From the NCBI RefSeq assembly GCF_000026545.1, contig NC_011601.1: a stretch of 64,000 nt of DNA; one strand, 5' to 3'. Below are positions 5,385 through 13,131 of this stretch, piece by piece. The position numbers and the translations under genes were made by a program. Position 1 is the first letter of the stretch, and every line of letters starts with the position of its first letter. The notes under the pieces are model-generated. The model saw only the letters and a program-made list of their open reading frames with translations. It did no database searches and had not been told where the DNA came from. The stretch is from Escherichia coli O127:H6 str. E2348/69 (GTDB lineage: Bacteria > Pseudomonadota > Gammaproteobacteria > Enterobacterales > Enterobacteriaceae).

Positions 5385-5846
<462 letters not shown>

Positions 5847-5868
5847 TTCGTTATTCAACGAGACGTAA

Positions 5869-5896
5869 AAACGCCGACCAGTGGTCGGCGTTTTGC
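5869..5896 (+). terminator. Intrinsic terminator of the rpsF-priB-rpsR-rplI operon
   Basis: aaaaacgccgaccagtggtcggcgttttgctttt: 9-bp stem, 3-nt loop, T-tract. Confidence 0.8.
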
Positions 5897-6206
5897 TTTT
5901 AAGTGATAAAAACCGCAGAAACAGACGTTCCCTCCATAAATCTCTTGTTATTCCTTTTATAAAAAGTTCGCAGTACCCATACCTGGCCCCCAGCCTCGCC
6001 GCTGGTAGTTCGTGTCATGTTTTTTACGCGTAAAACACGACAAAAGCATCAATACAGCGATCGTCTCCCTTGTATGATAATAAAAACAATATGTTATATA
6101 TGAATGTGCTGTTATTTTATTGTTTTTATATATAAAAGGATAAAATATCATCACTTTCGTAATCTTGAACGCTTTGCAGGTGCGTTCAATCCAATAAATG
6201 CTAATA

Positions 6207-6227
6207 TTATGGCTATCATAGCCATAA
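6207..6227. promoter_or_regulatory. 21-bp perfect palindrome TTATGGCTAT-C-ATAGCCATAA about 20 bp upstream of the HTH gene start; candidate autoregulatory operator
   Basis: Read directly from the sequence; flanked by two 22-bp direct repeats (about 6125-6146 and 6226-6247). Confidence 0.5.
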
Positions 6228-6247
6228 AAAGATAAAATATTATCACT

Positions 6248-6727
6248 ATGGGTAAAAAAACAGCACCGTTACTCCCTTATACGAATCAGATGCTTAGTGA
6301 ATTTGGTGAGCGGCTGAAACTTGCTCGTTTACGACGCAGGCTTACCGCAAAGCAAGTTGCTGAACGTGCTGGGATGTCGCCAATAACATTGCGCTCTCTG
6401 GAGTCAGGAAGTGCAGGGGTCACGATAGGGGCATATTTGTCTGTGATGCAGGTTTTGGGCCTGGAAACGGATTTAAATAAGCTTGCAGCTGAAGACGACT
6501 TAGGGCGTCAGCTCCAGGATTCCCGTTTGATTAAAAAAAGAGGGCTTTCTCGTTCATCAGGTAAAAATGAAGAAGGTATTCAGACAGACCCTTTTCAAAC
6601 GAGGTATGAGAAAGAAGGTTTACTCACCACGGATTTAACAGCACTGGCAGAAGGCTCAACGCCATCTATTACAGGAGAAACATCAACCTCTCTTGCAGCA
6701 CTATTAAAACCGATAAAAAACCGTTAA
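6248..6727 (+). CDS. Xre/Cro-type helix-turn-helix DNA-binding protein with long low-complexity C-terminal tail; HipB-like regulator of the downstream split-kinase module
   Basis: 159-aa ORF; N-terminal [32 protein letters not shown] is a classic Xre HTH; first gene of a three-gene co-directional cluster. Confidence 0.7.
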
Positions 6728-6740
6728 AAGGAAATTAATT

Positions 6741-7001
6741 ATGGCATTAATCGGAGTGTATGCGGATTGGGAAGGCCTGGATGGTCCGGAGCGGATTGGT
6801 TATTTACACAGTCGCCGCACTCGGACGCGTGAGATATTTGAGTTTGAGTACGATAAAAAGGCGCTTGCAGATCCTTCACTTAATTTCATTCAGTTAGATC
6901 CTGAAATAATGTTGTATGAGGGAGCACAGTACCCAATTCCTCCAAAGGATAAATTTGGTGCATTTAGTGATTCCTGCCCGGATCGTTGGGGCGTATGCTA
7001 A
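6741..7001 (+). CDS. HipA N-terminal subdomain-like small protein (HipS-like putative antitoxin)
   Basis: 86-aa ORF with AAGGA 8 nt upstream; contains ...FGAFSDSCPDRWG, resembling the conserved motif of HipA N-terminal domains; stop overlaps the next start (TAATG). Confidence 0.55.
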   Translation: MALIGVYADWEGLDGPERIGYLHSRRTRTREIFEFEYDKKALADPSLNFIQLDPEIMLYEGAQYPIPPKDKFGAFSDSCPDRWGVC

Positions 7002-8008
7002 TGAAGCGTCGTTTTGAGAGGGATATTCGAGACGGGTTATGTGATAAAGACTCCCACCTTTATGAGTCTGATTATCTACTAGGTGTTCATGATCTTTATC
7101 GGGTTGGGGCTCTTCGATACAAACGTGAAGACGCTGGAGAGTTTCTTGATAATCGCATTGATGTTGCAGCCCCACCATTTACCGAAATAGCGAGTCTGGA
7201 AAGGGCTAGCCGGGCAATTGAAGAAGATCCTGATAATAAAGAGCTAATGGGGCAAAAATGGTTAAGAATGCTAATCGCTCCGGGGGGATCATTAGGGGGG
7301 GCACGTCCGAAAGCCAGTGTTGTTGATGAAGCTGGGCATCTCTACATCGCTAAATTTCCCAGTGTAAAAGATGAGTATGATGTTGGTGGATGGGAAATGG
7401 TCGTTAATGCACTTGCTGTTGGCTGTGGACTGAATGTTGCACCTGCTCAGGCGCATAAATTTGCCAGCAATTACCATTGTTTTATGGTTCGTCGTTTTGA
7501 CCGCACTAATGCGGGAAGGCGTCTGCATTTTGCTTCGGCTATGACACTAACCAGGCATCAGGATGGTGAAGATGCCTCTACAGGTGTGAGTTATCTGGAA
7601 TTAGCAGATGTTCTTATCAGGCATGGCGCGCAGACTAATACTGATCTTAAGGAACTCTGGTCCAGGATTGTTTTTAATATTCTTGTTTCTAATACCGATG
7701 ACCATTTACGTAATCATGGATATATCTTGATACCGGGAAAAGGTTGGCGGCTTTCTGAGGCATATGATTTGAATCCTGTTGCCAGGTCTGACGGTCTAAA
7801 ACTCAATATTACAGAAAATGATAATGCACTTGATTTGGAATTAGCTCGAGAAGTTGCGGAGTATTTTCGACTTGGTTTGACAGAAGCAGATGACATTATT
7901 GCTAATTTTAGAGGGATTGTCAGTCAGTGGCGAATCATTGCCGAGCGTCTTCGATTACCTGGTCGTGAGCAAGAGTTAATGGCAGAGGCGTTCAGGGGGG
8001 CAATTTAG
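7001..8008 (+). CDS. HipA-family Ser/Thr kinase core (HipT-like putative toxin)
   Basis: 335 aa from ATG 7001 (ORF 6986-8008); Gly-rich loop GGSLGGARPKAS, catalytic-loop-like VSNTDDHLRNHG and downstream AYDLNP at HipA-like spacing. Confidence 0.65.
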   Translation: MKRRFERDIRDGLCDKDSHLYESDYLLGVHDLYRVGALRYKREDAGEFLDNRIDVAAPPFTEIASLERASRAIEEDPDNKELMGQKWLRMLIAPGGSLGGARPKASVVDEAGHLYIAKFPSVKDEYDVGGWEMVVNALAVGCGLNVAPAQAHKFASNYHCFMVRRFDRTNAGRRLHFASAMTLTRHQDGEDASTGVSYLELADVLIRHGAQTNTDLKELWSRIVFNILVSNTDDHLRNHGYILIPGKGWRLSEAYDLNPVARSDGLKLNITENDNALDLELAREVAEYFRLGLTEADDIIANFRGIVSQWRIIAERLRLPGREQELMAEAFRGAI

Positions 8009-8104
8009 AATAGTTATTTTGATATATTCGCTAAATCATAAATTTGCGAAGCAATGCCAGTAGATACTGAACGTTTTGGAAGAGACGTTTAATTTATGAG
8101 AAAA

Positions 8105-11593: not shown

Positions 11594-13131
11594 GCATCCT
11601 CCATCGGCGTAAACAGGCTGCTTTCCATCAGACGTGGGTGCCTGATAATCGGACGGAAGGCCATGAATGGCAGAATGTCGCGCTCAATCTCTACGCCAGG
11701 GGCGATCTCAATTAATTCAACGCCTTCTGCCGTTAACTGGAATACCGCACGTTCGGTGATATACAGCACTTCCTGACCGCTTTGCTGTGCGTAGGCGGCG
11801 CTAAAGGTGATTTTTTCCACCAGGGCAACCAATTTAGGGATTTGACCTGACTGGGCGATATGCAAGCCATCTGGCGTTACATCAATCTTGCTGCCTTTGG
11901 CGTCGAACGTACCGCAAAACACCACTTTACGGGCGTTTTGTGCAATTTCGAGAAATCCGCCGGGGCCAATGAGATTGCCATTAAGATGGGATACGTTGAC
12001 GTTACCGTACCGATCCATCTCTCCCATGCCGAGGAAGGTGATATCGATACCGCCGCCACTGTAGAATTCGAATTGATCGAGTGATGGAATAATGGCATCG
12101 GCGTTACGGGCGCAGCCGAACAGAGCATCATCCAGCATCATGCCGTTATGTACACCCTGTTCTACACTCAGCCACAAACTTTGATAAGGCACGCCTTCGC
12201 GCAGCGCAACCCCAGGAATACCGCCGGGAATACCAAAGCCAAAGTTGGTTGAAGCGCCTGCCACCAGTTCCCGCGCTGCCCGACGGGCAATCAGGCGACG
12301 CACCGGATGACTAACCAGTTCAATAGCGTCGTTAGAACTTAGACGGCGATGTTGACCGCTGATGGTCAGGTCGTAACCGCCAAGATAGGTTTGCGGTTGT
12401 TCGCGGTGCTCAACGATGCCATCGACCAGAATTCCTGGTAGCTTGACCCGACGTGGTTCAATGGTACCTGCTTCCAGCACATCGCGGACCTGTACGAACA
12501 CTTTGCCGCCGCTGTTGTGTGCTGCCAGCGCCATCGAATAGCTATCCATATAAATCGCTTCTTCTTCGAGGCTAACGTTGCCTCGTGGATCGGCATAAGT
12601 GCCACGCAAAATCGCGTAATCCACTTTGAAAGGGCGATAACGAAGTTTGGTCTCACCGTCGATTTCAATCAGTTCTACCAGGTCGTCGGTAGTGCATTCA
12701 TTCGACTTACCGCCGCCATTGCGTGGATCAACAAACGATCCCAGCCCAACGTGGGTAAAAAGCCCCGGACGTCCGGCACCGATCTCCCGCAGCAGTGCCT
12801 GAATTACGCCACCAGGGAAACAGTAGGCTTCAATAGCATTGCTTTTCACCAGTTCCTGCATCTTGGGCGACCAGGTAAAATGTCCGGCAATAATGCGTTT
12901 GAGCATTTCGGCGTGAGCAAAACGGTTAGTGCCTTTGCTGTCGCGATCGCCAATACCCAGCGAGTGGATTAATGTCAGATCGCGCGGGTGTCCGGTTTGC
13001 AGGAAACGCGCTTCAATGGCGGCCAGAATATGGTCAGCTTCCACCATACCGCCGCCGTTACCGCTAATGGCAATGGTTGCGCCGTCCTGAATTTGCGCCG
13101 CCAGTGTCTCGGCGGTTGATAACTTACGCAT
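11590..13131 (-). CDS. Family I CoA-transferase (acetyl-CoA hydrolase/transferase, fused alpha/beta, YdiF/Pct-like)
   Basis: 513-aa ORF MRKLSTAETLAAQIQDGATIAISGNGGG... with the glycine-rich CoA-transferase N-terminus and duplicated domain architecture. Confidence 0.7.
   Translation of the reverse strand: MRKLSTAETLAAQIQDGATIAISGNGGGMVEADHILAAIEARFLQTGHPRDLTLIHSLGIGDRDSKGTNRFAHAEMLKRIIAGHFTWSPKMQELVKSNAIEAYCFPGGVIQALLREIGAGRPGLFTHVGLGSFVDPRNGGGKSNECTTDDLVELIEIDGETKLRYRPFKVDYAILRGTYADPRGNVSLEEEAIYMDSYSMALAAHNSGGKVFVQVRDVLEAGTIEPRRVKLPGILVDGIVEHREQPQTYLGGYDLTISGQHRRLSSNDAIELVSHPVRRLIARRAARELVAGASTNFGFGIPGGIPGVALREGVPYQSLWLSVEQGVHNGMMLDDALFGCARNADAIIPSLDQFEFYSGGGIDITFLGMGEMDRYGNVNVSHLNGNLIGPGGFLEIAQNARKVVFCGTFDAKGSKIDVTPDGLHIAQSGQIPKLVALVEKITFSAAYAQQSGQEVLYITERAVFQLTAEGVELIEIAPGVEIERDILPFMAFRPIIRHPRLMESSLFTPMEDA

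Follow-up and report, generated by a model that had tools for sequence, protein, structure and literature searches.

HipA-type kinases are the founding persistence toxins, and, to our knowledge, the Hip operators mapped so far are those of the K-12/Shewanella type and of two HipBST systems. In Escherichia coli K-12, HipB binds four operators cooperatively, and the centers of O1 and O2 lie 28 bp apart in the published oligonucleotide (PMC3376134). A tripartite system, hipBST, was described in E. coli O127:H6, the same strain as the one analyzed here, with a stop/start overlap of 1 nt between hipS and hipT (PMC6581861). Its HipB suffices to repress its own promoter, and repression is better when the kinase is coexpressed (PMC10627512). 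In Legionella pneumophila, HipB binds three conserved operators, O1 to O3 (PMC10653801).

The locus studied here belongs to a 64,000-nucleotide stretch of DNA from E. coli O127:H6 strain E2348/69, referred to below as the window. It matches this strain at 100%, is flanked by rplI and an MFS transporter gene, and has the gene order of a HipBA module, in which an XRE-family HTH gene stands immediately upstream of a hipA-family kinase gene in the same orientation. We propose that positions 6100 to 6250 are most probably the promoter-operator of a two-gene hipBA-like operon, made of four ~18-bp boxes (B1 to B4 in Table 1) that would serve HipB-type autorepression overlapping the promoter. The initial annotation had read this region as one through which an HTH antitoxin or regulator represses its own gene, and the conservation of the boxes, their position, and their covariation with the HTH protein are all consistent with that reading.

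As in K-12 hipBA, an XRE-type HTH gene lies upstream of a gene for a kinase of the HipA fold, and four putative operators, each a short dyad, overlap the promoter and form closely spaced pairs, with centers 31 bp apart here versus 28 bp in K-12. The motif is unrelated, however: TATCC-N8-GGATA in K-12 and WGCYA-N6-TRGCA with an AATAWT core at our locus. This dissimilarity had already been remarked upon, and it holds, since TATCCN8GGATA has no match between 5900 and 6250 with up to 2 mismatches; its count over the whole window is that expected by chance. The proteins also differ. The kinase is ~18% identical to K-12 HipA, which a sequence search misses altogether, and K-12 HipB is an 88-aa protein ending in Trp, whereas the HTH protein here has 163 aa when intact, with a variable linker and an LAALLKPxKKP motif. 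The L. pneumophila hipBST operators, identified upstream of hipB by cross-species alignment, are likewise partly asymmetric inverted repeats, the proximal one of which overlaps the predicted promoter (PMC10653801). Nevertheless, they number three, stand at even intervals with gaps of 53 bp, and have another motif, unlike the two 39-bp pairs at variable distance from each other that we describe here.

Table 1. Features of the hipBA-like locus of E. coli E2348/69 (positions in the window; box scores from the position weight matrix [PWM])
Feature	Position	Strand	Description
Terminator hairpin, perfect, 13-bp arms	5868-5894		After rplI
B1, distal-left box	6102..6119	-	13.8 bits, a weak box in E. 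coli; 16-bp site 6107-6122, TGCTG-TTATTT-TATTG; most degenerate of the four
Perfect 14-bp palindrome, TTTTATATATAAAA	6124..6137	.	Arm of 7; in the distal spacer, centered on the B1/B2 dyad
B2, distal-right box (first direct repeat)	6141..6158	+	11.0 bits, a weak box in E. coli; 16-bp site 6138-6153, GGATA-AAATAT-CATCA
B3, proximal-left box	6194..6211	-	18.6 bits, top-scoring; 16-bp site 6199-6214, TGCTA-ATATTA-TGGCT
Extended -10-like element, TGCTAATAT	6199..6207	+	Inside B3; hexamer TAATAT at 6202-6207
Perfect palindrome	6207..6227	.	Left arm 6207-6216, inner half of B3; right arm 6218-6227, in the B3-B4 spacer
B4, proximal-right box (second direct repeat)	6233..6250	+	15.4 bits; 16-bp site 6230-6245, AGATA-AAATAT-TATCA; abuts the ATG
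HipB-like XRE-family HTH gene	6248..6727	+	159 aa here, 163 aa in other strains; Pfam HTH_31, 6e-11
hipA-family kinase gene, pseudogene in E2348/69	6741..8008	+	HipA_C domain, 5.4e-47; PGAP/RefSeq "frameshifted"

In the 19 short-match genomes listed, which include K-12 C600 and O157:H7, the match to positions 5850 to 8100 is limited to the first ~50 nt. The accessory segment with the hipBA-like locus therefore begins right after the rplI terminator. Among complete E. coli genomes, ~19% carry it, with ST131, ATCC 25922, and IHE3034 as examples. The whole locus is 97.8 to 100% identical among E. coli copies, and the 156-bp promoter region reaches at least 99% identity in 909 of the 1041 carrying genomes. 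A search of positions 5800 to 6400 for known RNA families yielded no match at the gathering score, and the weak matches fall on the rplI terminator.

In the initial annotation, the coding part of the locus was described as three proteins, namely, a 159-aa HTH protein, a small protein, and a kinase. This division is a frameshift artifact of a single hipA-family gene. The G-run at 6988 to 6991 is G4 instead of G5 in E2348/69 (a 1-nt deletion), and the split products are pieces of 86 and 335 aa whose frames share a 1-nt stop/start overlap (TAATG, 6999 to 7003). The corresponding DNA of strains FP4 and IHE3034 encodes one intact 422-aa HipA-family protein together with a 163-aa HTH protein, and in relatives and other E. 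coli strains, the kinase is one continuous open reading frame (ORF) of 419 to 423 aa; RefSeq flags both genes as frameshifted in E2348/69. The G4 split allele is present in 3 of 1044 E. coli genomes, and in 60 of 79 related loci, the HTH gene is immediately followed by a full-length HipA homolog (at least 400 aligned residues). Other frameshifts interrupt the kinase gene in AVS0467 (at 7244), in AHB4 (at 7815), in ATCC 25922, and in an ST131 isolate. Of 7 E. coli genomes sampled, 5 have a broken kinase gene and 6 an intact HTH gene; it looks as if the toxin has been repeatedly lost in E. coli while the antitoxin gene and its promoter have been retained.

The intact kinase has the hallmarks of a HipBA toxin, a HipA_C domain with conserved catalytic residues and a full-length HipA fold. 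The Gly-rich loop A180-P190 (APGGSLGGARP) and residues D320, D321, H322, and N325 are invariant among 32 homologs, and the AlphaFold model of the intact protein (pLDDT of 81, pTM of 0.84) aligns with full-length K-12 and Shewanella oneidensis HipA over ~455 columns, with TM scores of 0.70 to 0.72 and ~18% identity. The N-terminal 127 aa gave no match in a sequence search against the PDB, and the kinase could not be matched to the Hip tree of Gerdes 2021 through the supplements of that paper.

The broken form in E2348/69 resembles the O127 hipBST operon in that an HTH gene is followed by kinase-related frames with a 1-nt overlap, and the 335-aa piece has the published length. However, the published HipB and HipS have 107 and 103 aa, versus frames of 159 and 86 aa here. 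We rejected an identity with HipBST, given that the HipT chains of PDB entries 7AB3-5 match at best with an E value of 2e-8 over ~104 residues, that the ORF is intact elsewhere, and that PGAP flags the frameshifts. Indeed, all matches to HipT chains are weak and partial (E values of 2e-8 to 9e-5), the fold search ranks full-length HipA first, and we found neither a separate conserved hipS nor a kinase of the HipT clade. Moreover, the frameshift falls inside the predicted helix 82-97, so the 86-aa piece would be a truncated subdomain rather than a clean equivalent of HipS. Since the single ORF is intact elsewhere and its model superposes on full-length HipA, we read the module as a two-gene hipBA-like system. 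This corrects a misreading by which a frameshifted hipA mimics a second hipBST in the enteropathogenic reference strain where HipBST was discovered.

The start of the HTH gene at the ATG at 6248, as initially assigned, agrees with its homologs, 78 of 79 of which begin at the aligned N terminus. Its length of 159 aa, by contrast, is that of a 1-nt-deletion variant of the 163-aa protein: alignment with three other strains shows that the A-run at 6715 to 6720 is A6 in E2348/69 and A7 in the others, and the loss alters only the last residues of the protein (KNR versus KKPLKGN). The protein has thousands of relatives, and their alignment comprises a highly conserved N-terminal portion of 95 residues, a variable linker that is probably disordered, and the conserved C-terminal LAALLKPxKKP motif, which is likely a kinase-binding or degradation tag. 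In its longer form, TSAxLAALLKPxKKP, this motif occupies family residues ~145 to 160, after the variable linker. The closest solved relative is PDB entry 9u9g ("XRE family transcriptional regulator, HipB," 153 aa; E value of 1e-30 over residues 1 to 97), with which the protein shares an N-terminal MxKKTAPLxP motif and the HTH domain. Our literature search returned no organism or publication for 9u9g and no DNA complex of its family.

Upstream of the HTH gene, the perfect palindrome that had been noticed first, TTATGGCTAT-C-ATAGCCATAA (10+1+10), is present. The two 22-bp direct repeats reported around it are real as well, the second at 6226 to 6247; the first, given as 6125 to 6146, was placed 9 nt too low and lies at 6134 to 6155, so the spacing is 92 bp, not ~100 bp. 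A repeat finder extends them to 24 nt (6132-6155 and 6224-6247, 22/24 identical). In dinucleotide-preserving shuffles of the intergenic region (5895 to 6250), a perfect palindrome with arms of at least 10 occurred in 0.36% of 20,000 sequences, and a 24-mer repeat pair at 22/24 occurred in none of 1000, the maximum being 19/24. Two inverted copies of the repeat, absent from the initial annotation, correspond to B1 and B3. The repeat finder also pairs an inverted copy at ~6106 to 6126 with the first direct repeat, in a 28-nt imperfect inverted repeat that joins B1 with B2, and it reports a short inverted match between 6199-6208 and 6236-6245.

The significance of these copies emerges from the comparison of related loci. 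Scanning one genome per species gave us 80 gamma- and betaproteobacterial loci (Enterobacterales, Pseudomonas, Burkholderiales, Xanthomonadales, and others). We compared the 140 nt that precede their start codons and refined a PWM on the 80 upstream regions. The resulting ~18-bp box (consensus CAGAATAATGGCACTT, core RRAATAWTRGCAC) was found 254 times in the 80 regions, by a PWM trained on the very loci that it describes. The commonest order is - + - +, that is, two inverted pairs (42 of 80 regions), and 105 of 110 adjacent (-,+) pairs are spaced exactly 39 bp from start to start, although such counts overstate the number of independent observations because many of the loci come from closely related Pseudomonas. 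Both pairs of E2348/69, B1/B2 and B3/B4, have this spacing. Of the 80 regions, 75 have a minus-strand box at -51 to -58 and 59 have a plus-strand box at -14/-15, whereas the distal pair stands anywhere from 67 to 156 bp from the proximal one. The sequence of the 21-bp spacers within pairs is not conserved, even among enterobacteria; the constant 39-bp spacing therefore reflects a constraint rather than mere inherited identity.

Each box is a 16-bp pseudo-palindrome with the extended consensus WGCYA-N6-TRGCA. The outer half (…TRGCAC) is strongly conserved; the left boxes also have a good inner half (TGCCA, AGCCA), whereas that of the right ones is degenerate. Within a pair, the box centers are 31 bp apart, or about three helical turns, which would place both boxes on the same face of the DNA. 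In the 64-kb window, only seven sites score at least 11 bits, and four of them are B1 to B4; none of 2000 local shuffles contained four PWM hits. The other matches, at 12085, 14000, and 15214, were considered as a possible regulon and discarded, as they lie inside ORFs and their number is at the chance level, shuffles predicting 1.9 ± 1.4 sites of this score.

One of the boxes appears to serve two purposes. The pattern TGnTAnnnT of an extended -10 element is present in 88% of B3 boxes versus 22% of B1, 10% of B2, and 14% of B4 boxes, indicating that B3 is under an additional constraint of the kind that a -10 element imposes. Judging from this element, transcription would start near 6212 to 6215, with a leader of ~33 nt. 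A scan for consensus sigma-70 promoters found none on the plus strand and only a chance-level match on the minus strand, and there is no convincing -35 element upstream of B3.

The protein encoded next to the boxes is the best candidate to bind them. Position 9 of B1, B2, and B4 covaries with the two residues that open the predicted recognition helix of the HTH protein, residues 45-46: this position is G in 88 of 94 boxes when the residues are L-T, T in 12 of 13 when they are Q-M, and A in 27 boxes and G in 20 when they are P-M, although shared ancestry inflates these counts and could account for part of the covariation. The L-T class goes with TGGCA/TGCCA, the Q-M class with TTGCA, and the P-M class with TAGCA/TGGCA. 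The covariation is consistent in direction, and its classes appear repeatedly within Pseudomonas. We base the choice of the adjacent HTH protein on this covariation and on the fixed position of the boxes beside its gene in many genomic contexts; the same comparison suggests that residues 45-46 are likely the specificity-determining pair. B3 is exempt from the pairing: all 33 of the 33 L-T loci and 6 of 7 Q-M loci retain A at its position 9 (read on the coding strand as T at -12), which fits a promoter constraint that overrides the operator preference at this box.

We infer from these data who binds, with what stoichiometry, where transcription starts, and how repression may come about, including any role of the kinase. 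Each box would bind a dimer of the HTH protein, and the two boxes of a pair would be filled together, on the same helix face. With B3 and B4 occupied, RNA polymerase would be blocked at the extended -10 element and in the initial transcribed region, which would switch the operon off; the distal pair, B1/B2, would add cooperativity. By analogy with K-12 HipBA, the kinase probably strengthens or bridges the complex; since the kinase is broken in E2348/69, only repression by HipB alone could operate in this strain.

This four-box model leaves the perfect palindrome, with its 0.36% frequency in local shuffles, unaccounted for. The initial annotation centered the operator on the palindrome; on this view, the palindrome would be the main operator and bind a single HTH dimer, and the direct repeats would be auxiliary sites. 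Its perfection, its statistical rarity, and its location between the -10-like element and the ATG speak for this role, as do its identity in all 6 aligned E. coli copies and the near-uniformity of the promoter region among carriers; however, the identity in the 6 copies is uninformative, as the whole locus hardly varies among them. Across the 80 related loci, the conserved element is instead the repeated box, which includes both direct repeats. The left arm of the palindrome (TTATGGCTAT) is conserved in enterobacteria as part of a box, whereas the right arm (ATAGCCATAA) is found in Escherichia only: the corresponding sequence is unrelated in Salmonella, Serratia, Erwinia, Atlantibacter, Pluralibacter, and all Pseudomonas and Burkholderia loci, even though the HTH domain is 70 to 85% identical. 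The best perfect dyads in the proximal pairs of other loci have arms of 3 to 6. In addition, the center of the palindrome (6217) is 5 bp off the dyad of the proximal pair (6222), and its half-sites, GGCTA-N3-TAGCC, do not have the N6 spacing of the conserved box. The right arm has no PWM match, and we also dismissed it as an extra box for this reason and for its half-site spacing. A role as the main operator is accordingly very unlikely; by sequence comparison, the palindrome lies outside the family-wide operator and consists of the inner half of B3 and a complement that has arisen only in Escherichia. There is about an even chance that this complement is a neutral by-product of one template switch (quasi-palindrome correction, an established mutational mechanism) that copied the inner arm of B3 into the spacer in Escherichia. 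Only the length of the spacer seems constrained, its sequence varying freely between genera, and the dyads, shorter or imperfect, that Atlantibacter (TATAATGGCATCATCCATATA) and Erwinia rhapontici (TTATGGCCATAA) form from the same TTATGG would fit recurrent quasi-palindrome correction. Sequence data alone, however, do not separate a neutral origin from a lineage-specific function. Such a function strikes us as rather unlikely; the right arm would then be an add-on to which a host regulator binds or, should transcription begin no later than ~6207 to 6212, part of a 5'-terminal mRNA hairpin. As RNA, the palindrome forms a predicted 9-bp hairpin (-11.8 kcal/mol for 6200 to 6260, z of -3.2), which would matter only if transcription starts upstream of ~6207, and the assignment of the -10 element to B3 does not favor such a start. 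Were the add-on real, it would bring a hipBA-like operon of horizontal origin under host control or alter the lifetime of the antitoxin mRNA.

The position of the promoter relative to the boxes can also be read in another way. The lack of a clear Shine-Dalgarno sequence before the ATG, correctly pointed out for E. coli (AAAGATAAAATATTATCACTATG), had led to the suggestion that the transcript is leaderless or that the operator overlaps the -10 element and the start. In a leaderless or near-leaderless transcript, the AT-rich core of B4 (AATATT, 6236 to 6241, or TAAAAT, 6233 to 6238) would be the -10 element, and transcription would begin at A6248 or just before it. B4 indeed stands at a fixed distance from the ATG (-14/-15 in 59 loci), and AATATT ends 7 nt before A6248. 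Nonetheless, B4 lacks two features conserved in B3, the -12 T and the TG extension, and the spacer offers no -35 element. Most nonenterobacterial B4 boxes, moreover, begin with the Shine-Dalgarno-like AGGA, which argues for a leader; enterobacteria have GATA there. Hence, a leaderless start is conceivable yet improbable, and the extended -10 element in B3 is the better supported of the two. The least credible of the alternatives is that the boxes are bound by a host factor other than the adjacent HTH protein or are mere reiterations of AT-rich promoter or UP-like elements. Their AATAWT core is AT rich and -10-like, as this would have it, but the boxes accompany the HTH gene across at least four orders and in differing genomic contexts, their position 9 covaries with HTH residues 45-46, and an exact 39-bp pairing is foreign to promoters.

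The proposed four-box promoter-operator is thus an element of the ordinary autorepression kind with a previously undescribed motif, and it is unsurprising in principle. In the literature searched, we found no paper describing an operator of this HipBA clade, no experimental member of the clade, and no binding, footprint, or start-site data for the family. The hipBA of Acidovorax citrulli, for which an EMSA of HipB has been published, was examined as a possible member and is doubtful as such, its HipA being a 440-aa protein with a Couple_hipA domain. Our analysis provides a testable operator model for an uncharacterized HipBA clade spread over Enterobacterales, Pseudomonas, Burkholderiales, and Xanthomonadales. 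The model comprises a motif, the layout in four boxes with their fixed 39-bp geometry, the possible use of one box as the -10 element, and a candidate specificity residue pair.

Two further sequences of the window deserve mention. Positions 6253 to 6266 (TAAAAAAACAGCAC), inside the HTH coding region, are 93% complementary to 6106 to 6119 in B1. We considered this segment as a fifth box and set it aside; since it encodes the conserved KKTAP and receives no PWM score, the complementarity is probably a coincidence. Finally, another perfect palindrome, one of only three in the window, lies at 2180 to 2202 (AGCACTCCCCGCTGGGGAGTGCT), with 10-nt arms and a 3-nt loop.
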